Shown in pieces: positions 12,584 to 38,795 of a DNA stretch of 39,025 nt. The notes below the pieces were generated by a model. The model ran no database searches. It was given only the letters and a program-made list of their open reading frames with translations, and was not told where the DNA came from. Where the stretch lies: assembly GCA_964620325.1 (NCBI GenBank), contig CAZUIM010000019.1, positions 1,142 to 40,166 of the forward strand, written 5' to 3'. Position numbers and translations under genes: made by a program. Position 1 is the first letter of the stretch, and the number at the start of each line of letters is the position of its first letter. This stretch comes from an uncultured Thermotogae bacterium (lineage in GTDB: Bacteria > Bipolaricaulota > Bipolaricaulia > UBA7950 > UBA9294).

Positions 12584-15514
12584 ATGCGAAGGATCCACTG
12601 TCTGCGGTCGTTGTCGGCCGTCGCCGCTTTCGTCTGTCTGGTTAGCCTGTCTGCCGACGCGACCGTTTCGATCTCGCTCTCTGCGGATCCGATCCCGGTC
12701 GCGCGGGGGGAGGATCTGAACTACGCGATCACAATCGAGAACCACGGTCCGGGCCCGATCGCCGACGCGACCCTCTACGTCCCGCTACCCGCGGGGATCG
12801 ACCAGTTGGCCGCCGAGGTCCGTGTCGAGGGCGGAGGCTGGGAACCGTATCCGCCGAACGGTCTCGTCCCCCTCGCGCCGCTTCCGGTCGATGAGCGGCG
12901 AGGCTTCGAGATCCGTGGGCGGGTGGAGCTGGGTGCGCCCGGGCGCTTGGCGACGACGGCACAGATCGTTTCGCCCTCTGGACCTCTGGCCGAGGAGTCT
13001 CTCGCGGTCAACGTTCTCCCTTCGGTCGATGCGGGACCCGATCTGATTGTCGAGCTCGGTGGAGCGGTGCACCTTGTCGGCTGCTCGGCCGACGATGGCG
13101 GAGACGGGATCGCGACGCTCGCGTGGTCCGACGACGGCGCGGGGGGGGCGTTCGACGATTCGGCGATTCTGCATCCGATTTACACCCCATGTGCGGCTAG
13201 CGGCCTCGTCGACCTGACCCTGTCCGTCAGCGACCACGACGGCGACGAGGCGAGCGACTCACTTCGCGTACGTGTCAACGAACTGCCGGTCGTCTACGCC
13301 GGGGACGATCGCATCACGCGACAATCAGCGTCGGTCGGTCTGGACGACGCGACGGCCTCCGATGCCGACGGGTGGATCGTCGAGTACACGTGGTCGGACG
13401 GTGGCGCCGGGGGGAGGTTCTCGCCGTCGGCCGATGTCTTTCATCCGACCTACGCGGTTCCGATGGTCGACCCGTGCGGCAACGGAGAGATCGAGTTGAC
13501 GTTGACCGCCGTCGACGATTGGGGCGGTGAGGCGGCCGACTCACTTTGGATCGTCGTGAGGAACCCGAATCGGCCGCCCTGCGTGGACGCCGGGGACAGC
13601 CTGACGGTCGAGAGCGGCGCGACGGTCACTCTGGACGGAGTTGCGACCGATCCGGACGGCGTCCTCGACGTCGTTGTGTGGGATCAGACGGGGGGGACGA
13701 CCGTCGCCATCACCGGGTCGAGCGCGACGGTCGAGTTTGTCGCTCCGGAGGTCGATGTCGTCGAGGAACTGAGGTTCCAGCTTCGGGCGGTCGACGGGTG
13801 CGGCGTCGTGGCGACCGACGAGATGACCGTGACCGTGGAGCCCGTGCCGACGTTCGGGGGCGAGCTCCGTCTCGCCGTCTCCATCGCCGCGTTCGATTCC
13901 TGGGGACTTCCGCTCTCGCCGCTCGACGTGCTCTCCGGCGGGGACGAGGTCCGGTTGGTGGTCGAGGTGCGGAACGTCGGCGACGGGCGGCTCGTCGACT
14001 TGCAGGGATGGACCGGCATGGGAGAGGACCTCGTCTTCGGGAAGGTCGAGCTTGGCCCGTGGGAGGCCGCTCGGGCGGAGTTCTTCCACTGCATCGAGCC
14101 CGGGACGCTCGACGAGCGGGTCGAACTCGGCGTCGAGGTCTCGGCAAGCGGCCCGAAGGGTGAACGGATCGTGGCCGACGATTCGATCGTCCTCGCCGTC
14201 CGGGAGCCGGTCGAGGCCCTCTCCCTCGAGAAACGGGTCGACGCCGCCGAGGCGGCCGTCGGAGAGACCATCGTTTACACGTACGCGATTCGAAACGTCG
14301 GCGGCTCGAACGTTTCGGGGATCGCCCTGGTCGATGATCGACTCGGATCGATCTCGCTTCCGCGGACGACTCTCGCTTCGGGGGAGAGCCTGACCGTCGC
14401 GGTCGAGTACATCGTTTCCGAGTCGGACGTCCCGGGGCCGCTCGTCAACACGGCGCAGCTGACCGGATTCGGGGTCTCCGGTGTGAGAACGCAAGTCGAT
14501 TCGGTCGCGTCGGTCGCGGTCGTCACGGCCGGTGAGGGCGGCGCCGGCGGGAGTTCCGCGGCGCCCACTGACGGTAGATTCCGGTCCGTCGTCATCAGTG
14601 AAGTCGCTTGGGGGGGAACATCGCATGACGCGGCCGACGAGTGGATCGAGCTGGTCAATCTGACGGATCGGCCGATCGACCTCGGCGGCTGGAGCCTTCG
14701 TTGGCGGGGCAGCTCGTCGGGCGGGCTCTGGCGATCGATCGACCTCGCAGGGACGATCGATCCGCTTCCCGTTCCGTTGACCGACTCCGTCGACGAGCTC
14801 GGTCGTCTCGCCTCCGTCCGCGAGGACGAGGGCTGGAGAGTCTTCGACCTTTCGTGGTGGAACGTCGGGAAGCGCGACGGCGACGGACGAGGGTTCTACG
14901 TTCTCGAGCGCGGCAGCGACGAGACGATCGCCGACCTGGCGGCCGACCTCGTCTACGGCGCCGACGAGACGTTCGCGCTCCCCGACGACGGGACGACCCT
15001 CTACCTGCACGCGCCGGACGGGACACTCGTCGATACTGCGAACGCGTCGTCGGCCTCAGGCTGGTCGGCCGGGGACGGTCGAAGCGGAGCAACGATGGAG
15101 CGGGTCAACCTCCTTCGCGCGGACGAGATAGGGAATTGGCAGACGAATCCGGGAATTCTGACCAATGGACGCGACGCGGCCGGGAGTCGACTCGTGGCGA
15201 CGGCCGGGAGGCCGAACTCGCCGAGCTTGGAGACACTGACCGTCTACGCTGCTTCGAAGGTTCCGGCGATCCGGGTCGACGCGGCGACGGAGGTTCCGAT
15301 TCCACTCGACGGATCGATCCGAGTCACGGTCGCCGAGGCGGGCGAGCCCTCGGGGGGCGGGGGGAGTTCGGTCGCCGGGCCGATCGTCACACGCCGGACG
15401 GAGAACGCCACGTGGTTCGTGTTCGACCCGGAGCGGTGGCCGGCCGGGACGGTCTGCGTTTGGGTCGTCTGTGCAGAAAGCACCTACTTGATCCCTTTGG
15501 TGCGGGGAGACTGA
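12584..15514 (+). CDS. Large secreted multidomain protein (976 aa). It has a signal peptide, an N-terminal DUF11-like domain, internal paired repeats (WSDDGAGGAFD... and WSDGGAGGRFS...) and a lamin-tail domain (LTD).
   Basis: Signal peptide MRRIHCLRSLSAVAAFVCLVSLSADA. The LTD signature is FRSVVISEVAWGG...DEWIELVNLTDRPIDLGGWSLRW. The start was chosen at ATG 12584. The upstream in-frame start at 12542 is less likely. Confidence 0.75.
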   Translation: MRRIHCLRSLSAVAAFVCLVSLSADATVSISLSADPIPVARGEDLNYAITIENHGPGPIADATLYVPLPAGIDQLAAEVRVEGGGWEPYPPNGLVPLAPLPVDERRGFEIRGRVELGAPGRLATTAQIVSPSGPLAEESLAVNVLPSVDAGPDLIVELGGAVHLVGCSADDGGDGIATLAWSDDGAGGAFDDSAILHPIYTPCAASGLVDLTLSVSDHDGDEASDSLRVRVNELPVVYAGDDRITRQSASVGLDDATASDADGWIVEYTWSDGGAGGRFSPSADVFHPTYAVPMVDPCGNGEIELTLTAVDDWGGEAADSLWIVVRNPNRPPCVDAGDSLTVESGATVTLDGVATDPDGVLDVVVWDQTGGTTVAITGSSATVEFVAPEVDVVEELRFQLRAVDGCGVVATDEMTVTVEPVPTFGGELRLAVSIAAFDSWGLPLSPLDVLSGGDEVRLVVEVRNVGDGRLVDLQGWTGMGEDLVFGKVELGPWEAARAEFFHCIEPGTLDERVELGVEVSASGPKGERIVADDSIVLAVREPVEALSLEKRVDAAEAAVGETIVYTYAIRNVGGSNVSGIALVDDRLGSISLPRTTLASGESLTVAVEYIVSESDVPGPLVNTAQLTGFGVSGVRTQVDSVASVAVVTAGEGGAGGSSAAPTDGRFRSVVISEVAWGGTSHDAADEWIELVNLTDRPIDLGGWSLRWRGSSSGGLWRSIDLAGTIDPLPVPLTDSVDELGRLASVREDEGWRVFDLSWWNVGKRDGDGRGFYVLERGSDETIADLAADLVYGADETFALPDDGTTLYLHAPDGTLVDTANASSASGWSAGDGRSGATMERVNLLRADEIGNWQTNPGILTNGRDAAGSRLVATAGRPNSPSLETLTVYAASKVPAIRVDAATEVPIPLDGSIRVTVAEAGEPSGGGGSSVAGPIVTRRTENATWFVFDPERWPAGTVCVWVVCAESTYLIPLVRGD

Positions 15515-18668: not shown

Positions 18669-19637
18669 CTACCGTGAGATCGTGAACGGCTCGTTGAACG
18701 CCTCGGCGCCGTTCAGGGTGCCGTGCGCTCGGTATCTGCCGCTCGCAAGACCGGCCGGATCGATTCGATAGTGACGCCACTCGCCGGCGGAGACGACGTC
18801 CTCGACGCGGGAAACTGTCGACTGGTCCGGACCGAGCCAGACGAGGTCGAACACATCACTCTGTCCGATCCGTGTGAAGTGAACGATCAGATGGATCGCA
18901 TCGTCGGAGGTGGAGAACCGGCTGGTCGGATCCTTGCCGACGTACCCTTCTCGCTTCGGTTCGACCGAGCGGTAGAGCCCGTAGCGGATCTCCTTGGTGT
19001 AGGCGGCGGTCAGGGCACTCTCGACGTCCCCAGCGATCGACGTCGCCGCAGTGGCGAGGAGTGAGTCGAATCCACCGAATAGGCTCCCCGAACGGAGCGT
19101 AGTCGAGTTGGCCCCCTGCACGTCGAGGGCCCGTTCGATCAGTCCGGTTCTCGTGTCAACGACCTCGACCTGGGCTCGAATCCGGACGCTGTACTCCGTC
19201 GCCGGCGCTTCTTCGGCGCAGTCGCCGTCTTCCCAGGCAACGCAGATCGTCGTCTCACGGGCGTTCGAATCGACAGCGTAGACCGCCCCGGTGATCAGCT
19301 TGTTGACCCCGGTGAGCGTGCCGATCTCGACGGCGGTCGACGGATCGATGAAGCCTGTCTGGGTCAGCGCGTTCTCCATCAGTAAGGCGTCGAGTTGAGC
19401 GCGCGAGTAGACGTCGATCCCGGACGCGTTGACGAGGCGCGTCTCGATTCGCCCGGCCAGCGTCCCTTCGACGCCGGGCCAACTCGAGCTGTTTGTGAAG
19501 GGGAGGACGGCGACGTCGAGTCGCTCGCTCGTGATCACGGCACGTTCCGAGGGCTCCGGAACAACGAAGACCAACAACGTCGCCACCAGCAGGACGCCGA
19601 TGACGAGTGCAATCAGCAGACCGGTGCTGTCGTCCAT
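18669..19637 (-). CDS. Single-pass membrane protein with a CsgG/LpoB/FlgO-like periplasmic domain plus an unknown C-terminal domain
   Basis: ATG with a GGAGGTG RBS. TM LLIALVIGVLLVATLLVFVV. VAVLPFTN...GIDVYSRAQLDALLMENALTQTGFID...GVNKLITGAVYAV matches the CsgG-like fold pattern. Confidence 0.5.
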   Translation of the reverse strand: MDDSTGLLIALVIGVLLVATLLVFVVPEPSERAVITSERLDVAVLPFTNSSSWPGVEGTLAGRIETRLVNASGIDVYSRAQLDALLMENALTQTGFIDPSTAVEIGTLTGVNKLITGAVYAVDSNARETTICVAWEDGDCAEEAPATEYSVRIRAQVEVVDTRTGLIERALDVQGANSTTLRSGSLFGGFDSLLATAATSIAGDVESALTAAYTKEIRYGLYRSVEPKREGYVGKDPTSRFSTSDDAIHLIVHFTRIGQSDVFDLVWLGPDQSTVSRVEDVVSAGEWRHYRIDPAGLASGRYRAHGTLNGAEAFNEPFTISR

Positions 19638-21410: not shown

Positions 21411-22199
21411 TTACAGCCAGGGCTCGATGTGGTAGTCGCGCAGCCGGATCGGATGATCGGTGTATCGCACAATTCCCTGGCGATCGAGAACGAACGTATG
21501 CGGGATCCCGTCGACGCCGTAGAGGAAACGGACCGCCGTCGCTTTCTCGAGACTGCCGCGAAGGACGACAAATTCGGTGAATCCGTTCTCGTTCAGGAAG
21601 TCGCGGGCTTTTGCCTCGGTCTCGTCCAAGTTGACGGTGACGGCGACGAGGCCGTCGGCGGCGAACCGCGCCCGAAGAGCCTCCAAATGAGGCATCGTCA
21701 ATCGACAGGGCGGGCAGCTGCTCCGCCAGAAGTCGAGAACGACTACGTAGCCTCGGTACTGGGCGAGGGATGTCTCGACCCCGTCGAGGCTCCTCAGGGT
21801 GAACTCCGGGGCGAGCTCGCCGATCTCGGTCCCCGTCGTCGGGGGCGCGACCGGATTGGAGGTGACAATCGCGCGCGTCGCCCTCCCTTCGCCACCGCGA
21901 TCGTCGGTCACCGTCAGCGTCGCCTCGAACGTTCCGGCCTGCGCGTACGTGTGGGAGACCGTCAGACCCGCGGCGATCGTCCCGTCTCCGAGATTCCATG
22001 CGTAGGCGACGATCGTCCCATCGGCATCGATCGAGTCGCTCGCGTCGAAGAAGACGGAGAGGGGGACGTCGCCGCTCGATGGAGACCGAGTGAATGACGC
22101 GATCGGGGATCGATTCAGCGCGATGCAGGAACTCATCAGGAATGCGACCAATGCAACGAGGAGGGTGGGAAGGGCGATAGCGAGGCGGGTTCGAGTCAT
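21411..22199 (-). CDS. Putative lipoprotein with a PKD domain fused to a TlpA/ResA-like thioredoxin (thiol-disulfide oxidoreductase, CxxC)
   Basis: Signal peptide with LMSSC. PKD-like segment PIASFTRSPSSGDVPLSVFFDASDSIDADGTIVAYAWNLGDG. Thioredoxin motif FWRSSCPPCR. Confidence 0.8.
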   Translation of the reverse strand: MTRTRLAIALPTLLVALVAFLMSSCIALNRSPIASFTRSPSSGDVPLSVFFDASDSIDADGTIVAYAWNLGDGTIAAGLTVSHTYAQAGTFEATLTVTDDRGGEGRATRAIVTSNPVAPPTTGTEIGELAPEFTLRSLDGVETSLAQYRGYVVVLDFWRSSCPPCRLTMPHLEALRARFAADGLVAVTVNLDETEAKARDFLNENGFTEFVVLRGSLEKATAVRFLYGVDGIPHTFVLDRQGIVRYTDHPIRLRDYHIEPWL

Positions 22200-22343: not shown

Positions 22344-22455
22344 CGGCCTCCGTGTGGGAGGATCCGGCTCGTCACTCAATCTATCTTCGGTTTTGGATCG
22401 AGGAAGCGGCGCCGCGGGATTTGATTCGCCCCGATCGCTCGGTATCCTCTGGGGC

Positions 22456-23790
22456 ATGGTCGCGAGACAGATCGGATCGGCCGTCCTTGTCGGGCTTTTG
22501 CTCGCCCTTTCGGTGGCGGCCGTCGCCGCTTCGTTCGACCACGGTCCATACTCGGGGGCCCCTTCGCTCGACGGTGTGACCGTCAGTTGGGTCTGTGAGC
22601 CGGCACTGCCGGCGCGGATCGAGTACGAATCGCGGGCCCGGTTCGACGCCGACGGAACGATGACCGGTTCGCTGCTCGTCCCGCCACTTGAGGAGGACAT
22701 CTTGGTCACGACGTCGCACGCGACGATCGAGGATCTCGAGCCCGGCACAGACTACGTGTACCGGGTCGTTCTGATCGACGAGGATGGGGAGGAGACGGTA
22801 AGTCCGATCGGCGCGTTCTCTACCGCACCCGCACCGGGCGAGCCGGTCGCGTTCGTCGTTGTCGCGGACACTCAGAAGCAATCGGAAGGGGTCAATCGCC
22901 TGGCACTGGTCGCCGACGGGATCGCGTCCGATCCGACCGAGTTTGCGTTCATCCTGCACGGCGGCGACGTGGTCGAGATCCCGTCGTCCTTCTACTGGGA
23001 CGACTGGTTCGACGCCTTCGACGAGGCGCTGCTGCGGGCGCCGTTCGTCCCGGTTCTCGGGAATCACGAGAAGAATCATCGATCGTACTACGACGCGTTC
23101 GAGCTTCCGCCGGGCGGCGGAAAGGACGACGAGCGTTGGTGGGCCCTCCACTGGGGTGACGTCGTCGTCGTCGGCCTCGATTCGAACGTCAAGAAGGCGA
23201 GCGACTACCGCACTCAGCAAGAGTGGGCGCGCGAGCATCTCTCCGGGCCTGAACCGCACAAGTTTGCCATCTTCCATCACCCCGTCTTCACCTCCGACGC
23301 GTACCACGAGTCGGGATCTTTCCTGGACAAGATCTACCATCCGATCTTCGCCGAGTGTGGCGTCGATGTCGTCTTCAACGGGCATTCTCACCACTACGAG
23401 CACATCGTTCGTGAGGGCGTGACGTATCTGGTCGTCGGGGGAGGTGGGGCAACCCCGCGGCAGACGCGGCCGGAACACATCGAGGGTTCGGACATCTCCG
23501 TTGAGGGGCACTACTTCTACACGCGCGTCCACACGTCGACGAGTGGGATCCGAGTCGAGACGATCTCGGTCGGCGAAGAGCGTCCCGACGGCGTCTGCAT
23601 CGAGTCGACCGGCCCGATCGATTCCTTCACGTTGAGACCGGACTCTCTGCTGGAGCCGGTCGAGGAACGCGTCCCCGAGCCGCCGTCGGATCCGGAGGCG
23701 GCAGAGGACAGAGCTCAAACGACGTGGATTCTGATCGGGGCAGTGGTTGCGGCGCTCGTCGTCCTTCTGCTGAGCGCCGGGCCCGAGTAG
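22456..23790 (+). CDS. Purple-acid-phosphatase-like metallophosphoesterase with an N-terminal FN3-like domain and a C-terminal TM anchor
   Basis: Signal peptide MVARQIGSAVLVGLLLALSVAAVAA. Metallophosphoesterase motifs GDVVE, GNHE, GHSHHYEH. C-terminal TWILIGAVVAALVVLLLSAG. Confidence 0.8.
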   Translation: MVARQIGSAVLVGLLLALSVAAVAASFDHGPYSGAPSLDGVTVSWVCEPALPARIEYESRARFDADGTMTGSLLVPPLEEDILVTTSHATIEDLEPGTDYVYRVVLIDEDGEETVSPIGAFSTAPAPGEPVAFVVVADTQKQSEGVNRLALVADGIASDPTEFAFILHGGDVVEIPSSFYWDDWFDAFDEALLRAPFVPVLGNHEKNHRSYYDAFELPPGGGKDDERWWALHWGDVVVVGLDSNVKKASDYRTQQEWAREHLSGPEPHKFAIFHHPVFTSDAYHESGSFLDKIYHPIFAECGVDVVFNGHSHHYEHIVREGVTYLVVGGGGATPRQTRPEHIEGSDISVEGHYFYTRVHTSTSGIRVETISVGEERPDGVCIESTGPIDSFTLRPDSLLEPVEERVPEPPSDPEAAEDRAQTTWILIGAVVAALVVLLLSAGPE

Positions 23791-23882
23791 TCCGAAATGG
23801 GGGTCCGGGAGGCGTTCCCGGAGAGGCTTCTTTCGCCGTTCTGATTGCGGTTCTCTGATTCCAACCTTCACGGCGGGGTCTT

Positions 23883-23911
23883 TTGCGTCGGCTGTAACCG
23901 GTCTGTATACT
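23883..23911 (+). promoter_or_regulatory. Sigma70-type promoter TTGCGT-N17-TATACT with an extended -10 (TGTATACT), upstream of the sugar ABC transporter genes
   Basis: TTGCGT at 23883-23888 and TATACT at 23906-23911. Confidence 0.45.
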
Positions 23912-23926
23912 GGTCGTTCACGAGGC

Positions 23927-24802
23927 GTGGAGTGGACCAAGGGGGGCGCATTGGAGGCAGTCCGCACCGGTCAGGAGTACGTTGCTCGGCAACGACTCTA
24001 TCGCCTTATGCTGTACGTCCTCCTCCTTGCCGGCTGCGCGATCATGCTCCTTCCCTTCTTCTGGATGGTCACCACGTCCCTCAAGACCCAGGCGGAGGCG
24101 CTGCGAGTTCCTCCGCTCTGGTTCCCTTCGACCCTGCAATGGCAGAACTTCGCGAAGGCGTGGAATGCGGCGCCGTTCGGTTGGTACTTCTTCAACAGCT
24201 TCTTTATGGCGATCACGACGACGACCGGAGAGGTCTTCACGACGATTCTCGCCGCCTACACCTTCGCCAAGATGAAGTTCTTCGGGAAGAATGTGTTGTT
24301 CGCGATACTCCTCGGAACGCTGATGATCCCGGGGCAGATGCTCCTGCTGCCGAATTACGTGACGATGGCGCGCCTGAGCTGGCTCGACAAGTACCAGGCG
24401 CTGATCATTCCGTGGCTCGTCTCGGTGTTCGGGATCTTCCTGTTGCGGCAGTTCTTCCGCAGCGTGCCCGATGAGCTGCTCGACGCGGCTCGGATCGACG
24501 GTTGTTCGCGGTTCCGTTTTCTGTTCACGATTATGGTTCCGCTCTCTAAGCCGGCGATCTTCACCGTCGCATTGTTCAAATTCCTCGGTAGCTGGAACTC
24601 GTTCCAGTGGGTTCTGATCATGACGAACTCGGCGAAGATGCGGACGGTGCCCGTCGGGTTGCAGGTGTTCTCGAGCGAAATCGGAACGGCGTACGAGCAG
24701 CTGATGGCCGCCTCGGTTCTGGCCATCATCCCGGTGTTGGTGTTGTTCTTCTTCACCCAGAAGCAGTTCATTCAGGGGGTCGCGAGAACGGGGATCAAGT
24801 GA
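23927..24802 (+). CDS. Carbohydrate ABC transporter permease (MalG/AraQ-like). Start uncertain: GTG 23927, TTG 23951 (which has an AAGGGGGG RBS) or ATG 24009.
   Basis: PFFWMVTTSLK is at the N-terminus. The EAA-like loop is in ARIDGCSRFRFLFTIMVPL. Six TM helices. Confidence 0.8.
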   Translation: MEWTKGGALEAVRTGQEYVARQRLYRLMLYVLLLAGCAIMLLPFFWMVTTSLKTQAEALRVPPLWFPSTLQWQNFAKAWNAAPFGWYFFNSFFMAITTTTGEVFTTILAAYTFAKMKFFGKNVLFAILLGTLMIPGQMLLLPNYVTMARLSWLDKYQALIIPWLVSVFGIFLLRQFFRSVPDELLDAARIDGCSRFRFLFTIMVPLSKPAIFTVALFKFLGSWNSFQWVLIMTNSAKMRTVPVGLQVFSSEIGTAYEQLMAASVLAIIPVLVLFFFTQKQFIQGVARTGIK

Positions 24803-24906
24803 GAAGCCGATCGGAACAATCGACACAAGGAGGTGATGTCGTACTCGGTGGCACGCACGCGGTCTGTACGATCGATGGTCCATGGACTTCAAGGAGGTCT
24901 TGAACG

Positions 24907-26133
24907 ATGAAGCTTCGAGAAACAATGATTGCTCTCGGACTCCTCGCTGTGTTCGCGCTCGGATTCGCGACGATGGCTCAAGAGCCGGTCACGATCGAGT
25001 TCTGGCATCGATTCAGCGAGAGCCACAATGAGGCGCTTGAGAAACTGGCCAGCGACTTTGAGGCGATGTACCCCCATGTCACGGTGGAGTACGTCTATCA
25101 GGGGAGCTACGGCGCACTCCAGCAGAAGATCAACAGCTCCGTCGTCGCGGGCGAGACCCCGACGATGACGATCTTCTACGAGAACTGGATCCCTCCGGTG
25201 CGGGACGCCCTGCTCCCGCTCGACGATCTCCTGTCACAGGAGACCAAGGATGACATCATCGATGGGCTGTACGCCTCATGTACGTTTGAGGGAGAACTCA
25301 TTACGGTGCCGTTCAACAAGTCGATCATGGTGTTCTACTACATCCAAGAGCGCGTGCCGACGCCGCCCACGACCTGGGACGAGCTTCTCCAGCTGTGTCT
25401 GGATCTTGAAGTTGACACCGATGGCGACGGGACCATCGACCAGTGGGGCATCGGTTTCCGCCCGGCGAGCAATCCGGAGCAGTTCTTCACCCTCCTCGCA
25501 CAGAACAACGGGTCGATCCTGAGTGAGGACTGGAGCGAGGTCACGCTCGACAACGAGGCCGGAATGGAGGCCGCGGAGTTCTACGCCGAGCTCTGCCAGC
25601 ACGCGTACATCACGGAGGAGTACCTGAACTCCCATCTCGACAAGCTGGCGATGGCGATCGATACGTCGGCCGGGTACCCGTACTGGGAGTCGGCCGCTTC
25701 CAACCTCGGACTGACGATCGGCGTGGCCCGCGTTCCGGGCAAGGAGAATCGGAAGTCGGCGATCCAGGGAACGAACATCGGAATCTTCAACAGCGCGTCG
25801 CAGGCTGAGATCGACGCGGCGATCCTGTTCGTCGAGTTCCTGTTGTCCGCCGATCAGACTGCGTACTGGGCAATCGACTCCGGCTACATGCCCGTCACGT
25901 ATTCGGGGTATGAGAGTCAGCTGTGGCTCGACTACGGCGCGGAGCACGACTACATCCAGGTGATGACCGAGCAGTTCGCCGACGGCTTTTCGCAGGTTCT
26001 CCATCCGAATTACGGAGACATGCGCGACGAAGTCCTCAGCACGTTCTGTGAAGAGATCGCAACGGGAGCAATGACCGTCGCGGAAGCGATGCCAATCGCC
26101 GTCGCTGATCTCGAGGCGTTGCTCGACTACTAG
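24907..26133 (+). CDS. Extracellular solute-binding protein (family 1, sugar ABC transporter)
   Basis: AAGGAGGT RBS. Signal peptide MKLRETMIALGLLAVFALGFATMAQE, then EFWHRFSESHNEALEKLASDFE, typical of SBP_bac_1. Confidence 0.85.
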   Translation: MKLRETMIALGLLAVFALGFATMAQEPVTIEFWHRFSESHNEALEKLASDFEAMYPHVTVEYVYQGSYGALQQKINSSVVAGETPTMTIFYENWIPPVRDALLPLDDLLSQETKDDIIDGLYASCTFEGELITVPFNKSIMVFYYIQERVPTPPTTWDELLQLCLDLEVDTDGDGTIDQWGIGFRPASNPEQFFTLLAQNNGSILSEDWSEVTLDNEAGMEAAEFYAELCQHAYITEEYLNSHLDKLAMAIDTSAGYPYWESAASNLGLTIGVARVPGKENRKSAIQGTNIGIFNSASQAEIDAAILFVEFLLSADQTAYWAIDSGYMPVTYSGYESQLWLDYGAEHDYIQVMTEQFADGFSQVLHPNYGDMRDEVLSTFCEEIATGAMTVAEAMPIAVADLEALLDY

Positions 26134-26141
26134 GACCGCTA

Positions 26142-26173
26142 CTCGGGTGGGGCGACCATCGGCCCCACCCGAG
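26142..26173 (+). terminator. Perfect 12-bp GC-rich stem-loop (CTCGGGTGGGGC-gaccatcg-GCCCCACCCGAG) immediately after the SBP stop. Likely an intra-operon attenuator/terminator giving SBP excess over the permeases.
   Basis: Exact inverted repeat, followed by TCTGATTCTTCG. Confidence 0.55.
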
Positions 26174-26202
26174 TCTGATTCTTCGATCGGATCGAGGTTC
26201 TG

Positions 26203-27138
26203 ATGGCGTCGAAGGTGCCGTTCTGGAAGAGGCCGATGCCGGACGACTGGCGAAGGCCGGGCTACTGGAGGGACACGGCGTGGGCGTACATCTACCTGGC
26301 GCCCGCGTTGGTGATCCTCGGTGTGTTCACGTTCTATCCCTTCTTTTCCGCCTTTCAACTGAGCCTCTACAAGGTGTCGTTCACCAATTTCCCGGGGACG
26401 TACATCGGCCTCGATCACTACAGGTATATCTTTGGCGACCGTTACTTTTGGCAAGCCCTTTGGCATACGCTGGTCATTGTGGGGGTCAGCGTGCCGGTCA
26501 CGCTGTTTCTGGCGCTCATGGTTGCGAGCCTGCTGAACAAGTCCCTGCGACTGCGGACGTTCGCACGCACCTCGTTCTTCCTATCATACATCACGCCGAT
26601 GGTCGCCGTGATCATGGTCTGGCGATTGATGTACAACGAGAGCTATGGGTTGATCAACTATTTCCTCGGACTGATCGGCATCAATCCGATTGCATGGCTG
26701 AACAGCACAGAATGGGCGTTGCCGTCGGTGATCATCCTGAGTGTGTGGCGATACGTCGGGTACCAAGCGATCATTCTCCTCGCCGGGATGCAGGGGATCG
26801 ATCAGATGTACTACGAAGCTGCGCGCATCGACGGCGCGTCGGGCTTTCAGGTCTGGCGGAAGATCACCGTGCCGCTTCTGACGCCGCAGATCTTTTTCCT
26901 GTTGATCATTTCGATGATCGGCTCGTTCAAGATTTTCACCGAGGTCTACGTGTTGTTCAATGGACCTGGCCGACTGAAGAGCGCAGAGACACTCGTCTAC
27001 TATATCATGCGACAGGGCTTCTTCGGCACACCCCACTACGGTCGCGCCGCGGCCGCATCGATCGTCCTCTTCGCGATCATCTTCGTCGTCACGCTGTTGC
27101 AGATGCAGGTGGCGAAGCGGCGCGTTCACTATCAGTAG
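26203..27138 (+). CDS. Carbohydrate ABC transporter permease (MalF/UgpA-like)
   Basis: EAA loop in EAARIDGASGFQVWRKITVPLL. Multi-TM. Confidence 0.85.
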   Translation: MASKVPFWKRPMPDDWRRPGYWRDTAWAYIYLAPALVILGVFTFYPFFSAFQLSLYKVSFTNFPGTYIGLDHYRYIFGDRYFWQALWHTLVIVGVSVPVTLFLALMVASLLNKSLRLRTFARTSFFLSYITPMVAVIMVWRLMYNESYGLINYFLGLIGINPIAWLNSTEWALPSVIILSVWRYVGYQAIILLAGMQGIDQMYYEAARIDGASGFQVWRKITVPLLTPQIFFLLIISMIGSFKIFTEVYVLFNGPGRLKSAETLVYYIMRQGFFGTPHYGRAAAASIVLFAIIFVVTLLQMQVAKRRVHYQ

Positions 27139-27169
27139 GTTCTTCGCCTGCCGGCTCTCCTCGCGTGGT

Positions 27170-27583
27170 TCACTTCACCCAGGTGATCACGGAGTACTCG
27201 TCGATCGTCTCGTCCTCCCAAGGCCGCCGGTAGACGAACGACAGCGTGGCCGTCCCGGAAACGACGGCGCGGTATCGGTACGTGAAGACGCCGGGACCGC
27301 CACAGACGCCGGGATCCTCCGGTCTGTAGGTTCCCTCTTCGACGATCTCCAGCGGGCCGTCACCGAATGACGTCGGTTCGACACGGACCCATTGGTACCC
27401 GGTCGACGCGTTCCCTTCGAGCCGGATCTCCAGTGTATCGCCGACCTCGATCGATCGAACGGCACCGTTGTCGGACATGTCGAGGATCACGGGCAGTAGT
27501 GAGCATCCGGGCAGTAGAGCGGCGAAAACGCCGGCACAGGTGAGGGCGACGATCCAGCGTGCAGTCTTGCGTCCGTCCATCAT
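27170..27583 (-). CDS. Chagasin-family (MEROPS I42) cysteine-peptidase inhibitor, lipoprotein
   Basis: ATG with a GGGGAGG RBS. Lipobox VFAALLPGCS. The three chagasin loops are conserved: LEGNASTGYQW (NPTTG-like), CGGPGVFTYRY (GxGG) and YRRPWEDE (RPW). The ORF-track start at 27793 is rejected as an N-terminal over-extension. Confidence 0.75.
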   Translation of the reverse strand: MMDGRKTARWIVALTCAGVFAALLPGCSLLPVILDMSDNGAVRSIEVGDTLEIRLEGNASTGYQWVRVEPTSFGDGPLEIVEEGTYRPEDPGVCGGPGVFTYRYRAVVSGTATLSFVYRRPWEDETIDEYSVITWVK

Positions 27584-27663
27584 CGGGCCTCCCCGGGAAC
27601 TGAATCCCCTCGGTTGTACGCGAGAACCGCCGAACGGGCAAGTCGCCTCAGAGGGCGGGCGTG

Positions 27664-28320
27664 TTAGGGGGGCGTCGGCGCGACGGGGATGATCTCCGGC
27701 GAGGAGGTGTACCTGGTCGGCATCGTGCCGATCGCCCAGCCGGTCGCCGTCGTTTCGAGGTAGTAGTATCTGTCGCCGCTCCATTCGTACCACACCGCCT
27801 CGGGCGCGTTCGGCGGAAGGACGCGAATCCCGACGGCCATGTGATTCTCGGCGGTGAACGCGAGGAGGACAACGCCGAATCCCATCTGCTCGAAGATGGC
27901 GGCTGTGAGAATCGCGAAATCCTCGCAGTCTCCGCAGCCTTCAACGAGCGTTTCGATCGGGTACCGCGGGTACTCCCCCTCTTCCGCTTCGTAGCGGAGC
28001 GACTGCACGAACGCGACGACAAGGTTGAGCTTCTCCCACACGTTGAGGCCGGCCGAGTGGGCCATCCCTTCCATGTCGGCGATCAGCGAGGCGAGTTCGA
28101 CGTCGTTGCTCGGTTCCAGAGCGTAGGCCGCGTAGGCGGTGTACGCGGCGACTCGGGGAAGAGATCGGAAGTGGCGGTACGCGTCGCCGGAGAAGGTGTG
28201 GGTGAGCGTCCAGACTCGTCCCGAGAACTCCCACGTGAATTCGCGCGTGATCGGTGCTGCTTGCCCCCAAAGCTCAACGGCGAATGCGGTCACAAGAACC
28301 GCGAGAACGAGCTTCCGCAT
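27664..28320 (-). CDS. Secreted transglutaminase-like (papain-fold) cysteine peptidase
   Basis: ATG 28320 with an AGGGAG RBS. Signal peptide MRKLVLAVLVTAFAVELWGQAA. Transglut_core catalytic signature GCGDCEDFA (G-x-C-x-x-F-A), with His at ENHMAVG about 35 aa later and an acidic residue in YYYLETT. Confidence 0.65.
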   Translation of the reverse strand: MRKLVLAVLVTAFAVELWGQAAPITREFTWEFSGRVWTLTHTFSGDAYRHFRSLPRVAAYTAYAAYALEPSNDVELASLIADMEGMAHSAGLNVWEKLNLVVAFVQSLRYEAEEGEYPRYPIETLVEGCGDCEDFAILTAAIFEQMGFGVVLLAFTAENHMAVGIRVLPPNAPEAVWYEWSGDRYYYLETTATGWAIGTMPTRYTSSPEIIPVAPTPP

Positions 28321-28471
28321 CCCACTCCCTGCCTTTCTGAATCCGTGCCTCGAGGAAGACGCCGGAGCGTGACTTGCATTACACTCCGACAATGAGAAGG
28401 TAGTCGGGAGTTGTCGATCGTTCGTGAAGATCGAATGGGGCGTGTGTGTTGGCGCTCGGTCGTCGGGGGGG

Positions 28472-29305
28472 CTAGAGCAGAGAGGAGACGAGTCCGCTGG
28501 TCGTCAGCCCGCTCGGCATCCCGACGTATCGGATGACGCCGGTGCGATCGATCAGGAATGCGGTCGGCGTTCCCCTCACGCCGTACGCGGCGATCGTCCC
28601 GAAGGTCACCGGCCGGGTCTCCCGCACGACGACGAACTTCGTGTACCCGTCCCCCTCGAGAAATCGCTGTGTGTCACGAGCACTTCCGTCGAGGCTGATC
28701 AACACGATGACCAGTCCCTGGTCGCCGTAGGTCCGTCGGAGCGCCTCCAGGTTCGGTGTCGACGCTCGACAGCTCGGGCAGGTGCTCTTCCAGAACTCGA
28801 GCACGACGACCAGCCCGAGGAAATCGGAAAGGTTGACGGTGTCTCCCGTGAGCGTCGGCAGAGCGAAGTCGGGCGCACGTTGGCCGACCTTGTTGCCCGT
28901 CAGAACGTCGGCCGGCGTGACCTCTCTCGCGAACGCCGGCGCTTCCGATTCTCCGGTCTCCGAGGGGCCCGCAGGCAAACTCAGCACATCGATCGTCTCG
29001 GTGATCATGTGCCACGAGCCGCCGTTGTCGGTCGCCAACAGGGTGACGTTGTATCGGTCAGCGCGGGGGAAAGTGTGCTCGACCACCGGGCCGGAGCCTG
29101 TCGTTCCGTCCCCGAAGACCCATTGATAGCGAACGACTCGGCCATCGGGATCGGACGATGCGGAGGCGTCGAACGCGACCACGGTCTCCGCTTCGTCGGG
29201 CAGCCGATGCGCCGAGAACGAGGCGATCGGTGTTTCGTTCGCCAACGCGGCCTGCGAGATCAGAATCAGCGCGGCCGAGAGAAGCAACGCGCGAAGCGGA
29301 CTCAT
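28472..29305 (-). CDS. Secreted PKD-domain/TlpA-like thioredoxin fusion (paralog of 21411-22199)
   Basis: Signal peptide MSPLRALLLSAALILISQAALA. PKD-like VVAFDASASSDPDGRVVRYQWVFGDG. Thioredoxin FWKSTCPSCR. Domain order matches the other copy. Confidence 0.8.
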   Translation of the reverse strand: MSPLRALLLSAALILISQAALANETPIASFSAHRLPDEAETVVAFDASASSDPDGRVVRYQWVFGDGTTGSGPVVEHTFPRADRYNVTLLATDNGGSWHMITETIDVLSLPAGPSETGESEAPAFAREVTPADVLTGNKVGQRAPDFALPTLTGDTVNLSDFLGLVVVLEFWKSTCPSCRASTPNLEALRRTYGDQGLVIVLISLDGSARDTQRFLEGDGYTKFVVVRETRPVTFGTIAAYGVRGTPTAFLIDRTGVIRYVGMPSGLTTSGLVSSLL

Positions 29306-29380
29306 CGTGTCACCCTTCCGGACGTTCCGTGTCGTCCCTCCTGGCAAGAGAGCCACGAGACCGAGGTTCACGTGCTCCTC

Positions 29381-30826
29381 CTACGGGGAGGGCTCGGACG
29401 GGGTTTGCGACTCCTCGGGCTCGAGCAGGTCCAGGCGGGCCTGAATCGTCGAGTCCTCACCGACCTTCTCCAATGCCTGGTGGTAGTAGGCGATCGCCCG
29501 ATCCGTCGACTCCTCGATCGTGACTTCGAGTTCGGCGATCCTGGCCTCGGTGTCCGCATCGATCTCTTCGGCTTCTTCCAGTTGAGCCTTCTCGTTGACG
29601 GCCTCTTGCCGTTTCGACTCGTAGCCGATGGCGACCAGGTAGGCTAGATACGGGTCGTCGACCGACTCGTCATCGAGCAGATCCTCGAGAGCTTCGAGTC
29701 CGAGATCGGGGTCTTCCTTCTGCAGCTTCGCTGCGGCGAGCAATGGATCCTCAATCACGATCTCCGCGTCGTCGAATTCCGATTGAAACCAGGCTTGGAA
29801 CTGATCGTCGGCCTCGGCCTCCGCGGCGTCGGCGCGAACCTGATCGGCGATCTCCGCGAATGCGGGCTTCGACTCGTCCTTGTGGCCCGTCTTCAGGATG
29901 ATGTGGAATCCGTACTCCGATTCGACAATGTCGCTTGTCTCGCCCTTCTCGAGGGCGAACGCTGCTTCCTCGAACGAAGGGACCATGTCTCCGCGGGCGA
30001 ACCAGCCGAGATCACCGCCGCTGGAGGACGAAGGGCAGGTCGAGTACTCCTCGGCCAACTCGGCCAAGTCCTCGCCCGTCTCGAGGCGCTCTGCAAGAAC
30101 TTCGGCCTGCGTCTGCGTGTCGACGAGGATGTGCGATGCCCGGATCTGCTCGGCCTGCTCGTAGTCTGCGCGATTCTCCTCGAAGAACGTCGCAACGTCA
30201 TCATCGGAGACCTCGGGCGTTCCGATAACGGCCTCCTCGAGCTCCTCGGCGACCAGCTGCTCGCGGATGCTCTGCTTCGACTGGGAGACGAACGTGTCCG
30301 GGTTCGTTCCGGCGCTTTCGAGGGAGGTGAAGAACTCCACCTCAGTCATTCCCTGCGCTTCGAGGTAGTCGGCGAAAAGATCCTGGAATCGCGCGTCGAT
30401 CTCCTCGTCGGTGACGACGACCCCTTCACTCTCCGCTTCCTCGAACAGGAATTCGCGTGCCGCCAGCCGCTGAAGGGCTTCGAGTTGCATGTTCAACGTG
30501 AGCTCGCGTCCGGAAGCGCCGGTGAGCAGTGTCCGGATGTCCTGGCCGAACTGAGCGTAGAGCTCCTGGTATTGCGATAGAACGAGGTTGAACTGTCGTG
30601 CGAGACCCTCGTCATACAGCGGTCGTCCATTCAAGTACGCGACGATCGTCCGCTCCGCCTCCTCAGCAACAGCTTCGTCGTCCACGGTCTCTGGTGCGAC
30701 CTCCGGAGCGGTCTCTTCAACCTGGTCGGCGGCCTCGGCCGGCTCTTCCGGTTGGCGACTGCAACCGGCGAACAAAAGGGACAGGGCGATCAGGAACACG
30801 ATGGGCAAGAACGAGCGAATCTGCAT
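29381..30826 (-). CDS. Lipoprotein peptidyl-prolyl cis-trans isomerase (SurA/PrsA-like, parvulin domain)
   Basis: ATG 30826 with an AAGGAGG RBS. Lipobox LLFAGCS. Parvulin signature IRASHILV...GGDLGWFARGDMVPSFEEAAFAL...SEYGFHIILK, flanked by acidic chaperone-like regions. Confidence 0.8.
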   Translation of the reverse strand: MQIRSFLPIVFLIALSLLFAGCSRQPEEPAEAADQVEETAPEVAPETVDDEAVAEEAERTIVAYLNGRPLYDEGLARQFNLVLSQYQELYAQFGQDIRTLLTGASGRELTLNMQLEALQRLAAREFLFEEAESEGVVVTDEEIDARFQDLFADYLEAQGMTEVEFFTSLESAGTNPDTFVSQSKQSIREQLVAEELEEAVIGTPEVSDDDVATFFEENRADYEQAEQIRASHILVDTQTQAEVLAERLETGEDLAELAEEYSTCPSSSSGGDLGWFARGDMVPSFEEAAFALEKGETSDIVESEYGFHIILKTGHKDESKPAFAEIADQVRADAAEAEADDQFQAWFQSEFDDAEIVIEDPLLAAAKLQKEDPDLGLEALEDLLDDESVDDPYLAYLVAIGYESKRQEAVNEKAQLEEAEEIDADTEARIAELEVTIEESTDRAIAYYHQALEKVGEDSTIQARLDLLEPEESQTPSEPSP

Positions 30827-31006
30827 GAGGACCTCCTTCGTTGGCCCAAGGATACGCGTTCGGGTCCGGTGATGAAAGGTGCCGACTCCGATCACATCGG
30901 CTCGATGAGCTGTGGTCCGGGTGGTTCCGGCGGCCGATACTCGCCTCGACGCGTCCCGTCAAGACTGGCCCCCTCGACCTGCTGGCAAGCCTCTCAGGGC
31001 GCTCGT

Positions 31007-32101
31007 CTACAGGAATCCGTGAGGGATTCGGACGGCGAACCGGCAGGCGTCGGCTCCGTCGAGCATCGTCTCGACCAGGTCGACCTGTGGCGACTCCCCG
31101 AACACGATCTCCCACTCCCGCACGTACCAGCCGGCGGAGCAGTGGCAGAAGGTGCGCGAGACGGGCCTTCGGTCTCGAATCGCATCGCGTACCAGCGGAC
31201 AGAAGCAGGCCGCGTAGCGCCTCTCGACCGGATCGGTCGCCTTCTCGTACGCCTCCGGACGGGCCGGGCGTCGCTCGATCATGAGCAGCGGTTGCACGCC
31301 CGACTCGTCGAGCCAGTACTTGCCTCCGAGGAACGGTTCGTCGGTCATCTTCTGCAGCAGCTTGCGAAGGTCGCGTCCGACCTCATCCCACGCGGCCTCG
31401 AGCAGCTCGCCACTCTGCACGATGTAGTGGTGGGCGCAGGCGTTGAGGATGCAGGCGCGCGCACGCTCGTCGGGGAGTTCGTGATCGAGCCGCGCCACCG
31501 CTCGCTGGACCCAGTCGGCCGCCAGGCTACCGTTCATCGTTTCGGCCAGTCCCTCGCTCCCGGCGAGGATCCGCTCGGCCGCCTTCGGATCGACGGCGCG
31601 GGCGACGCCACTGGCGAACGCGTCGAGCCAGATCGGCATGTGGTGCGGATACTGGACCTCCAGCGTGAATCGCTCGTCGGCGTCGACGGTGTTCAGTCCA
31701 TTGTGGTAGATGAACCGGACCGGATCGTCGCCGACGAGGATCGCGTTCTCCCCGATGAACGCGGCGAACGGGGCCCACGTGTCCGCGAGGTTCGTCCCCT
31801 CCGGACCGCCCTTCAGCGGGCCTTCGTGAACGATCGAGAACATCGGAAGCGCCGGCAACGTCTTCGTCTCGAAGCCCTCGCGGCAGGTCGGCTCGCGAAG
31901 CGGGAAAGCCAAGTCATAATCGGCCTTTCCGTGACGAGGAAAACCGGTCCGGAGGGCCATCGGGGGGGCATCCATCACGTCGAAAACGCTCGGGAGAAGG
32001 CTCGCGAGTTCACGCGCGACCTCGCCTTGATCGGCGAGGGACCTCCGCACGGTCAGCACGTGCAGCGGTTCGACGTGCTTGACGGGAAATTCGATCGGCA
32101 T
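31007..32101 (-). CDS. GyrI-like small-molecule-binding domain protein with a Cys/His-rich C-terminal domain of unknown function
   Basis: AGGAGGAGG RBS. The N-terminal roughly 150 aa (HVLTVR...GFETKTLPA...HEGP) fit a GyrI-like/AraC effector-binding fold. C-terminal cysteine motifs are ACAHHY, AACFCP, FCHCSAGW and DACRF. Confidence 0.65.
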   Translation of the reverse strand: MPIEFPVKHVEPLHVLTVRRSLADQGEVARELASLLPSVFDVMDAPPMALRTGFPRHGKADYDLAFPLREPTCREGFETKTLPALPMFSIVHEGPLKGGPEGTNLADTWAPFAAFIGENAILVGDDPVRFIYHNGLNTVDADERFTLEVQYPHHMPIWLDAFASGVARAVDPKAAERILAGSEGLAETMNGSLAADWVQRAVARLDHELPDERARACILNACAHHYIVQSGELLEAAWDEVGRDLRKLLQKMTDEPFLGGKYWLDESGVQPLLMIERRPARPEAYEKATDPVERRYAACFCPLVRDAIRDRRPVSRTFCHCSAGWYVREWEIVFGESPQVDLVETMLDGADACRFAVRIPHGFL

Positions 32102-32233
32102 CGCGGCCTCCTCCTGGCGTTCTGGCAGTCTCTAGATTGAGAGGGTCGCGCCGGCCCGTCACGCAAACGTCTCACGGGCGTGAAGGCCCGGGGACGACCC
32201 GTCCGCGCGCGGGCCGAATCCCCCAACCAGTCC

Positions 32234-32531
32234 CGGCCGCCCTTCAGCGGGCCTTCGTGAACGATCGAGAACATTGGGATCTCCGGCAACGTCTTCGTCT
32301 CGAAGCCCTCGCGGCAGGTCGGCTCGCGAAGCGGGGAGGCCAAGTCGCAATCGACCTTCCCGTTACGAGGAGAGCCGGTCCGGAGGGCCATCGGAGCGTG
32401 GCCGTTGCGTCGCCGATCCTCGGGAGAAGGCTCGCGAGTTCACGAGCGACCTCGCCTTGATCGGCGAGGGACCTCCGCACGGTCAGCACGTGCAGCGGTT
32501 CGACCGGCTTGGCCGGATCGACGACAGGCAT
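32234..32531 (-). pseudogene. Decayed partial paralog of the GyrI-like gene. It covers the N-terminal roughly 100 codons at about 90% nucleotide identity, is frameshifted and truncated, and has its own RBS.
   Basis: 32234-32531 aligns to 31806-32090. Examples are CCCTTCAGCGGGCCTTCGTGAACGATCGAGAACAT and CTCGCCTTGATCGGCGAGGGACCTCCGCACGGTCAGCACGTGCAGCGGTTCGAC. Translation gives MPVVDPAKPVEPLHVLTVRRSLADQGEVARELASLLP, then a frame change to MALRTG...CREGFETKTLPEIPMFSIVHEGPLKGG. Confidence 0.6.
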
Positions 32532-37329: not shown

Positions 37330-37815
37330 CTGCGCGCGTCAAGCGGCGGGTTCAGAGATCAGCGATGATGGACTGAAATAGACGGTGTCCGCAGAGGGGG
37401 AAAGGAAAATCGGCGCTTCGAATAACGGGGCATGCCATCGAGGTGCAGCGGTGCACGACACGCAACTTCGTAGTCAGGACTCCCGCTGCTCGGAGGAGCA
37501 GGGTCAAGTCTTGCAATGCAATATGAGTGACAGCTGGGATTCGCTAGATGCTAGTGCTGCAGTGCAAGACCTCGTATCTTGGCGGGGCGTCGTAGCTGTC
37601 GTGCATCTCTGGACTGAGTCGGATGGAGATGCTCGCGGGTGGGCAGATCGGGCAAGACCGGAACGACGAAGTCGTCAGTTCGCGGGTCAGATGGACCGCC
37701 CTCCCACAAGCCAGGACAGCATCAAGAGCGCAGCTCGCGCTGCAGCTCGTGTTTACGAGGTCAGGCTGGAGAGGGCAGCCCACACGAACTCTCCATCACT
37801 CTAGGATGACGGAGG
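37330..37815 (+). ncRNA. Candidate IS110-type bridge/guide ncRNA region (structured 5' non-coding arm of the IS)
   Basis: IS110-group elements encode their bridge RNA in the left arm upstream of the transposase (established knowledge). Here stems are visible, for example CTGCTC-ggag-GAGCAG (37481-37496) and GTCTTGCA...TGCAAGAC (37509-37571, 8-bp arms). The ORF-track ORF at 37385-37804 has poor coding character. Confidence 0.35.
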
Positions 37816-37820
37816 TTCCG

Positions 37821-38795
37821 ATGAACTGTATCGGTGTCGATGTCAGCAAGCAAGAGCTGGTCACCTTCGACGGTAGCAAGGAGCGGATCTTCCCCAACAC
37901 GAGTGGGCTAGCCGAGTTCGGTCGATTCCTCAAGCGATCGAAGGATGCGCTGGTGGTGTTCGAGCCGACGAGCACGTACTCACGCAGGCTGGAGGCGTTG
38001 TGCAGAGCGCAGCGCATCACGTGCTGTCAACTGAATCCACGTGTGGTTCCGCATCTGCGTCAAGTAGGCAAGGGACGCTCGAAGACGGACAGCACGGATG
38101 CAGAACTCCTGTATCGCTACGGGATCGAGCGCGGACACAGCGAAGCAACTCCACTCGAGAACGACGCACTGGCTGAATCGATCCAGGCGCGGCTCGCCTG
38201 CTACCGCGTGGCCCAGAAGGGGCGTGTTGCCTACCAGAACGTGTTCGAGGCGTTGAGCCAGGATCCGGAGACATCGGGAGCGCTGCTCGCTGAGCTTCGG
38301 ACGGAGATCTCCGAGCTGAAGAAGAAGGAGAAGCAGCATCTCGATGCGGCACAGCAGCTCGTCGAGGAAGATGAAGAGATCTCACAACGACTGAACGCGC
38401 TCCTCTCGATTCCCGGCGTTGGCCCGATCATCGCACTGACGCTCCTCGCGCTGTTCCGCAAGTACGCTGACGTGAATCGGGGCCAGATCGTCGCGCTGGC
38501 CGGATTCGACCCGATTCAGGTGCAATCTGGAACGTCAGTTCACGGGAAGAGCCGGATCAGCAAGCGTGGGAACCGAGAGGTCCGCAAGCGTCTGTTCGAA
38601 GCGACGTTGTCTGCCGCTCGCTACAACCCGAGCATCCGCGCGATCTACCGACGGCTAAAGGAAGCAGGGAAGCCGGAGAAGGTGGCGAGGATCGCAGCGG
38701 CGCGGAAGCTGCTACTGATTGCCCATGCTATCTACAAGAGCGGGGATCCCTACCGCGATCCGAACGTCGAGCATGAGTTCCGTAGGAACTCGTAA
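37821..38795 (+). CDS. IS110-family transposase (DEDD/RuvC-like N-terminal domain plus Transposase_20 C-terminal domain)
   Basis: ATG 37821 with a GGAGGT RBS 5 nt upstream. MNCIGVDVSKQELV...FEPTSTYSRRL (DEDD). C-terminal LSIPGVGPIIALTLLA...AGFDPIQVQSGTSVHGKSRISKRGNREVRKRL. Confidence 0.85.
   Translation: MNCIGVDVSKQELVTFDGSKERIFPNTSGLAEFGRFLKRSKDALVVFEPTSTYSRRLEALCRAQRITCCQLNPRVVPHLRQVGKGRSKTDSTDAELLYRYGIERGHSEATPLENDALAESIQARLACYRVAQKGRVAYQNVFEALSQDPETSGALLAELRTEISELKKKEKQHLDAAQQLVEEDEEISQRLNALLSIPGVGPIIALTLLALFRKYADVNRGQIVALAGFDPIQVQSGTSVHGKSRISKRGNREVRKRLFEATLSAARYNPSIRAIYRRLKEAGKPEKVARIAAARKLLLIAHAIYKSGDPYRDPNVEHEFRRNS

Follow-up and report, generated by a model that had tools for sequence, protein, structure and literature searches.

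A chagasin-family (I42) gene coupled to the gene for an exported transglutaminase-like cysteine hydrolase in Bipolaricaulota: a candidate inhibitor and target

We analysed a 39,025-nt stretch of DNA, the window, from an uncultured bacterium placed in Bipolaricaulota (GenBank assembly GCA_964620325.1, contig CAZUIM010000019.1, positions 1,142 to 40,166). It contains four co-directional minus-strand genes that encode, in order, a PrsA-like foldase, a thioredoxin-type protein with a PKD domain (PKD-thioredoxin), a transglutaminase-like (TGase-like) enzyme and a protein of the chagasin family of cysteine peptidase inhibitors, MEROPS family I42 (Table 1). A sequence-only reading of this DNA had proposed that the last two form a protease/inhibitor self-protection pair. 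It was exact in placing both genes on the minus strand, in the 80-nt gap that separates them and in the GCGDCEDFA motif of the enzyme. A promoter and terminator scan of 26900-31300 gave no minus-strand terminator-like site in the spacers of the four-gene group, which is weak evidence, and otherwise nothing useful.

Table 1. Features of the four-gene module and the related paralogue in the window.
Feature	Position (nt)	Strand	Basis of assignment
Chagasin-family (MEROPS I42) inhibitor-like protein, probable lipoprotein, 137 aa	27170..27583	-	Pfam PF09394, PDB sequence matches, AF2/Foldseek
Intergenic spacer, 80 nt; Shine-Dalgarno-like GGGGAGG, 5 nt upstream of the start codon (ATG) of I42	27584..27663	-	sequence
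Secreted transglutaminase-fold cysteine hydrolase (putative), DUF553/LapG-like, 218 aa	27664..28320	-	Pfam DUF553, PDB profile search, AF2/Foldseek, residue conservation
Exported PKD domain + TlpA/ResA-like thiol-disulfide oxidoreductase, CPSC active site	28472..29305	-	Pfam PKD_4, AhpC-TSA/Redoxin; NCBIfam ResA/TlpA/DsbE-type
PrsA/SurA-like parvulin peptidylprolyl isomerase (PPIase) lipoprotein, lipobox LFAGC, first gene of the module	29381..30826	-	Pfam Rotamase, SurA_N_3; NCBIfam
Second PKD + TlpA/ResA-like thioredoxin, lipoprotein paralogue, 38% identical to the 28472-29305 gene	21411..22199	-	Pfam

The product of the last gene belongs to the chagasin family by sequence, fold and loop motifs. 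It matches the Pfam family Inhibitor_I42 (PF09394) with an E-value of 1.9e-21 and a score of 76.6 bits, the cut-off being 27.2. A phmmer search of the PDB returned P. aeruginosa ICP (2wgn) as the best match (3.7e-10), with L. mexicana ICP (3.9e-9), chagasin (~5e-9) and the amoebiasins also in a set that ran from 1e-10 to 1e-7. The AlphaFold2 (AF2) model, with a predicted local distance difference test score (pLDDT) of 85.8 overall and above 88 across the domain, retrieved EhICP2 and chagasin in a Foldseek search at E-values of 1e-9 to 1e-8. It superposes on EhICP2, chagasin and amoebiasin with a target-normalised template modelling (TM) score of 0.80-0.85 and a root-mean-square deviation of 2.2-2.8 A, and so has the Ig-like beta-sandwich fold. 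All three chagasin loops are present, as had been claimed: L2 (N58-A-S-T-G62), L4 (G95-G-P-G98) and L6 (R120-P-W122) fall in the aligned columns of chagasin NPTTG, GxGG and RPW. In an I42 alignment that includes chagasin, T61, G62, W65, G95 and W122 never vary, and conservation at N58 and G98 is at least 90%.

The same gene had been described as encoding a 138-aa lipoprotein; the family assignment stands, the length is 137 aa plus a stop codon, and the lipid anchor is probable. The signal peptide ends in LLPGC27, with a proline at -2 that is atypical for a lipobox, and we call the protein a probable lipoprotein because its homologues carry L-[SANTG]-G-C at this site. Two further features of the family were observed. 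Cys94 (27296-27298) lies in loop L4, and many TGase-linked I42 proteins, including those of loci L002, L093 and L094, have a cysteine in or beside this loop (CGGPG, GAPC, ECPNP); canonical chagasins have none there. Tandem double-I42 proteins of 246-315 aa occur in other lineages (L176:3501-4268, P0134-P0138 and P0144), and one of them adjoins NosD/beta-helix proteins and a GyrI-like gene.

The upstream neighbour has a Sec-type signal peptide and carries GCGDCEDFA at residues 128-136. It matches DUF553 (PF04473) with an E-value of 2.3e-5 and 24.3 bits against a cut-off of 20.5, while its Transglut_core score falls under the cut-off of that family. Among 32 homologues, 31 match DUF553, 27 match Transglut_core and nine match Peptidase_C93 weakly (PF06035, best E-value 0.0019). 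A profile built from these 32 sequences and searched against the PDB led to LapG (4fgo, 4u65) over the stretch E-Y-P-R-Y-P-x-E...G-D-C-E-D-x-A-I. The top Foldseek matches of the AF2 model (pLDDT 90.6) all have the TGase fold and include LapG, a putative Cytophaga cysteine protease (3isr was also listed), transglutaminases, PNGase and the pseudomurein endoisopeptidase PeiP. Their probabilities are 0.97-1.0 and their TM-scores 0.3-0.47, indicating that the core fold alone is matched.

Residue conservation across 159 family members from bacteria and archaea points to C132-H160-E189 as the candidate triad. C132 and H160 do not vary at all, and at position 189 Glu stands in 157 members and Asp in two; Q106, E123, D131 and D134 are invariant as well, and E133 is kept in 158. 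In the AF2 model C132 begins helix 132-145, H160 begins strand 160-166 and E189 follows strand 183-188. The identification as a secreted TGase-like protein with a cysteine-protease signature and downstream His and acidic residues is therefore upheld. The triad, whose loss would have counted against the sequence-only reading, is intact, with Glu as its acid, and by conservation forms a candidate catalytic site. The segment E116-YPRYP-x-E123...G130-DCED134 resembles the Ca2+/active-site motif of LapG and is a predicted Ca2+ site. The family is sizeable, comprising 741 clusters (50% identity) at an E-value of 1e-30 or below and 3347 at 1e-10 or below among 1.84 billion, and most of its members have no precomputed Pfam match; because they escape Pfam annotation, the pairing described below would have been overlooked by domain co-occurrence screens.

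In the subclade of the window the catalytic cysteine is part of a CxxC motif, C129-G-D-C132 (codons 27925-27936), and 13 of the 17 thioredoxin-linked Bipolaricaulota enzymes have a second cysteine at 129 (CGDC) or at 115. Since such a second cysteine is common in the thioredoxin-linked enzymes, unlike in the 60 of 138 family members outside this clade in which the catalytic cysteine is the only one, the pattern suggests, speculatively, that the neighbouring reductase may exert redox control over the nucleophile. Covariation of the loop-L4 cysteine of I42 with Cys129 of the enzyme was considered and rejected as inconsistent: L081 and the P0012/P0122 pair combine Arg129 with CGGPG.

Conservation of the pair was evaluated in 160 loci of enzyme relatives, 80 of them from species-representative genomes and 80 from metagenome contigs, with all six frames searched using I42 profiles that included chagasin, PaICP and LmICP. 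Neighbouring genes were called by six-frame hidden Markov model searches, as picking the longest open reading frame (ORF) gave wrong-strand ORFs in GC-rich loci. The closest homologues of the TGase-like protein are annotated as Candidatus Bipolaricaulota. In 17 of 21 loci of this clade the TGase-like gene is directly preceded by the PKD-thioredoxin gene, its most constant Bipolaricaulota neighbour, more so than I42. An I42 gene lies directly downstream of the enzyme on the same strand in 11 of the 17 thioredoxin-linked loci (the window, L001-003, L081, L084, L089, L092-094 and L161), and the PPIase gene lies upstream of the PKD-thioredoxin in L001-003, L082-085, L094 and L161. Because the I42-bearing loci fall in all three subclades of a neighbour-joining tree, I42 was probably present in the ancestor of the clade and lost repeatedly.

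The genes beyond I42 vary among the I42-bearing loci (ABC transporter, NosD-like and others), and it follows that the block from foldase to I42 is a conserved unit in which I42 is part of the module and not of the general synteny. Within the clade the TGase-like protein diverges down to 48% identity and I42 down to ~40%, and the pairwise divergences of the two are correlated (mirror-tree r = 0.91, 15 pairs), which fits co-inheritance. In the six loci without I42, the enzyme gene is followed by a second PKD-thioredoxin paralogue (L082/083, L085, L088) or by a BtpA homologue (L004, L086). The I42-less relatives show the order TGase-like gene, second PKD-thioredoxin paralogue, then BtpA and PfkB genes. 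In the window, this paralogue (Table 1) is separated from the TGase-like gene by I42, a convergent ABC sugar-transporter operon and a metallophosphatase gene, in a region that includes 22354-27138 (+). The comparison suggests an insertion into an older synteny block whose older end is the second PKD-thioredoxin.

Outside the clade, in ~140 loci from methanogens, Bathyarchaeota, Thermoplasmatota, Chloroflexota, Bacillota and Bacteroidota, I42 was found only in L008 (Dehalococcoidia), immediately upstream of the enzyme gene. Co-occurrence of I42 and TGase-like genes, proposed as a check by the sequence-only reading, is seen in most thioredoxin-linked Bipolaricaulota loci and recurs in Dehalococcoidia but does not extend to the other loci of the family. 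A search for natural I42-TGase fusions among 123 I42 proteins, 120 close TGase-like homologues and 149 TGase-family representatives found none.

The reverse test used a profile search with the I42 alignment followed by inspection of the contexts of eleven I42 proteins. It uncovered a large cluster of ~147-aa I42 proteins from Chloroflexota/Dehalococcoidia, those inspected having lipobox-like signals. Besides L008 from the forward scan, four further contexts among seven sampled I42 proteins of this cluster contain the pair. In these (P0182, P0170, P0178 and P0198) the order is a 179-aa protein, I42, a 337-348-aa TGase-like protein and a MiaB-like radical-SAM gene. The gene order is thus inverted relative to Bipolaricaulota, with the I42 lipoprotein first and the TGase-like lipoprotein second, between radical-SAM genes. 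The 337-348-aa protein matches the Bipolaricaulota TGase profile at an E-value of ~1e-58, has a lipobox and carries the motifs EYPRYPIETLVDNGGDCED...HHMAVGV...YYYLETT. It has no Pfam match even at an E-value of 0.01, so this branch is invisible to standard annotation. We also observed that this lipoprotein (L166:4508-5542 (+), with its I42 partner at L166:4001-4450, L167-L170 and L008) has an extra C-terminal beta-rich region of ~95 aa and that the 179-aa protein before I42 is conserved and Cys-rich. Another of the inspected contexts, P0125 from Bipolaricaulota, has the same four genes in a block with new flanks.

Judging by sequence identity, a recent joint transfer of the pair between the phyla is unlikely: the I42 protein of the window shares 25-33% with its Dehalococcoidia counterparts, no more than the 35% it shares with P. 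aeruginosa ICP. Chance adjacency of the two genes is negligible because the TGase-like family is rare (the 3347 clusters noted above). That the two genes are linked has good support, and it is the nature of the link that we infer.

Of the readings considered we favour, tentatively, the one in which the I42 lipoprotein would bind the cysteine hydrolase encoded next to it and restrain that enzyme at the membrane surface. The assignment of both proteins to their families is secure, with profile E-values too strong for chance motif hits, and the functional residues are kept in both. In the mechanism we propose, the most economical one, the enzyme would be exported by Sec and its folding aided by the PrsA-like foldase. 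The adjacent reductase would keep the active-site thiol, which in this subclade lies in C129-x-x-C132, reduced or would switch it. The membrane-tethered I42 would then grip the enzyme by its three-loop wedge, with L2 (NASTG) over Cys132/His160 and with L4 and L6 flanking, and would keep it inactive or localised at the membrane surface until release. Chagasin's mode of inhibition would here act on an enzyme of the papain-like superfamily that lies outside family C1, with a functional parallel in the sequestration of LapG by LapD. The sequence-only reading had spoken of the periplasm; since the envelope type of the phylum is unsettled (PMC6092417), 'extracytoplasmic space' is the better term.

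Self-protection, the role for which the pair was first picked out, is not supported as a necessity by the comparison: I42 is missing in six of 17 syntenic loci that keep the enzyme, and one Dehalococcoidia locus has I42 without the enzyme. Because I42 has probably been lost repeatedly while the enzyme was retained, the evidence favours I42 as a modulator over an essential antidote.

Several observations weigh against the proposed binding and restraint. The absence of I42 from the six Bipolaricaulota loci is one, and from the ~140 loci of the wider TGase-like family another. P0152, a Dehalococcoidia locus of the same synteny, is the one that has I42 without an enzyme. All the Dehalococcoidia cases have the same synteny and are taken as a single evolutionary event, so that the independent observations number two. 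Correlated divergences are what any two genes inherited together should show and are no evidence of interaction. The TGase-like enzyme is a candidate protease, amidase or transglutaminase, and we know of no I42 member that inhibits an enzyme of the transglutaminase fold. In the solved chagasin-family complexes tabulated in a review, the partner is always a family C1 peptidase (PMC7863939).

This last point is also where the strongest alternative begins, namely that I42 is a true inhibitor whose targets are C1 enzymes, either foreign ones (of grazers, hosts or competitors, for instance) or ones encoded at another place in the genome, and is in the module merely as a co-expressed envelope protein. 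The characterised members of the family all act on C1 peptidases (PMC7863939), and the bacterial ones studied to date have foreign C1 enzymes as targets, such as the host plant C1 proteases targeted by Cip1 of P. syringae (PMC5014320); the three loops of the window protein are close to the canonical C1-binding motifs. The retention of the TGase-like gene in loci without I42, which makes I42 dispensable, and the existence of I42 genes with no TGase-like neighbour (P0133, P0204, P0206, P0139 and P0222) are consistent with it too. It leaves unexplained why two phyla have the same rare TGase-like family directly beside I42, in opposite order and otherwise unrelated contexts, and why the module constantly ends in I42 when the flanking genes change. 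We consider a C1 target unlikely, if a serious contender.

Genomic coupling shows a functional link and not its direction. The I42-fold protein might be no inhibitor here and might instead serve the TGase-like enzyme as Ig-like adaptor, membrane tether or chaperone, or be its substrate; it could, for example, anchor the enzyme or be cleaved or cross-linked by it. The I42 fold is also found where no inhibitor is involved, since the PDB sequence matches include phage tail proteins and a protein with an Ig-like domain, and in Bipolaricaulota the enzyme has a Sec signal alone while the lipid anchor is on I42, as a tether would have it. The conserved N58 and the invariant T61, G62, W65, G95 and W122, however, belong to the inhibitory loop motifs and would be superfluous for a mere tether, and the Dehalococcoidia enzyme is itself a lipoprotein and would need none. 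A role of this kind is in our estimate unlikely too, marginally more so than a C1 target. That the adjacency has no functional meaning, being gene order inherited in related genomes plus one Dehalococcoidia coincidence, is very improbable: there are just two independent lineages and I42 is missing from many loci of both, yet flanks are reshuffled around an intact four-gene block, large divergence is spanned within the clade, and a second immediate same-strand adjacency in another phylum would be very unlikely by chance with both families rare.

Restraint of the hydrolase by I42, if it occurs, would make I42 the first inhibitor of its family known to act on a non-C1 enzyme and the first protein to be recognised as an inhibitor of the DUF553/LapG-like branch. 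For the sizeable and uncharacterised TGase-like family, the analysis itself offers an initial lead to function. A wider proposal, possible but to be regarded with some doubt, is that exported DUF553/LapG-like cysteine hydrolases are an overlooked endogenous target class of prokaryotic chagasins, served in Bipolaricaulota by a dedicated module in which the foldase folds the enzyme, the TlpA-like reductase controls its catalytic CxxC and the lipoprotein holds it at the membrane; I42 specificity would then extend past family C1. Chagasin homologues are present in bacteria and archaea, and to our knowledge, from the early ICP literature, many of these organisms lack papain-family peptidases. What I42 does in them is a modest standing question, for which coupling to a TGase-fold hydrolase offers a concrete candidate target: the TGase-like family may be an in-house target of bacterial chagasins. 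The pairing had been called uncommon, and a search of a library of papers agrees, returning no paper with both 'chagasin' and 'transglutaminase-like' and a single classification paper for DUF553. What comparative genomics points to is a candidate protease-inhibitor gene pair that joins a known inhibitor family to an unexpected partner family.

The surroundings of the pair are those of an envelope-folding cluster, as had been proposed. The PKD-thioredoxin and the PPIase are both confirmed, with the correction that the PPIase is a PrsA-like lipoprotein and not a classical SurA; in NCBIfam it scores best against generic and PrsA-type peptidylprolyl isomerase models and lower against SurA. Further envelope components of the window are a surface-type protein of 990 aa (12542-15514, +), which contains DUF11, PKD, DUF7507 and lamin-tail domains, and a CsgG-like protein (18669-19637, -). 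Elsewhere, a 112-aa ORF (32053-32391, -) repeats 52 residues, at 87% identity, of the GyrI-like/DUF6144 protein directly downstream (31007-32101, -) and is a partial tandem duplication or gene remnant. An IS110-family transposase with DEDD_Tnp_IS110 and Transposase_20 domains is encoded at 37623-38795 (+).

In its gene arrangement the pair recalls the staphopain-staphostatin operons of Staphylococcus (scpAB, sspBC), in which a cysteine protease gene is likewise followed by the gene for a small beta-protein, there a specific inhibitor. The genes described here form a candidate operon-type pair, adjacent and co-directional, with linkage conserved in the 11 clade loci and in the inverted Dehalococcoidia lineage. 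Staphostatins (I57), however, are an unrelated family; they are cytoplasmic and guard against protease that becomes active too early, whereas both proteins of the present pair are exported and I42 is dispensable in several lineages. With the systems of chagasin or ICP and C1 peptidases (cruzipain, cathepsin L, falcipain), the module shares the inhibitor family, by profile, fold and three loops, and a presumed target that is likewise a thiol enzyme of the papain-like superfamily. It differs in that the candidate target is of the transglutaminase fold (DUF553/LapG-like) and not of the C1 fold, and in that the putative inhibitor is probably lipid-anchored and its gene shares a putative operon with those for the candidate target, a foldase and a thiol reductase. 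P. aeruginosa ICP and P. syringae Cip1 are, like the I42 protein of the window, secreted bacterial proteins of this family, but have no known endogenous target, for which the window protein has a candidate in its conserved neighbour.

LapG (BTLCP, MEROPS C93) is the top match of the window enzyme by both sequence and structure, and like it is an exported TGase-fold thiol protein with an acidic GDCED motif at the nucleophile. LapG is a Ca2+-dependent protease with a Cys-His-Asp triad and calcium ions beside the active site (PMC4359373). In the window enzyme the third triad residue is Glu instead of Asp, the N-terminal lobe is different, and the partner is an I42 lipoprotein and not a cyclic di-GMP (c-di-GMP) receptor. 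Orthology with LapG was rejected (NCBIfam NF045674, 22.8 bits against a cut-off of 320), and the four-gene module contains no gene for a LapD-type c-di-GMP receptor or a LapA-type adhesin. LapD and LapG nevertheless provide a precedent for sequestration of a Ca-binding protease of the TGase fold by a protein bound to the membrane (PMC4359373), and control by a membrane-bound partner is, by analogy, the logic that we propose for I42 and its neighbouring hydrolase.

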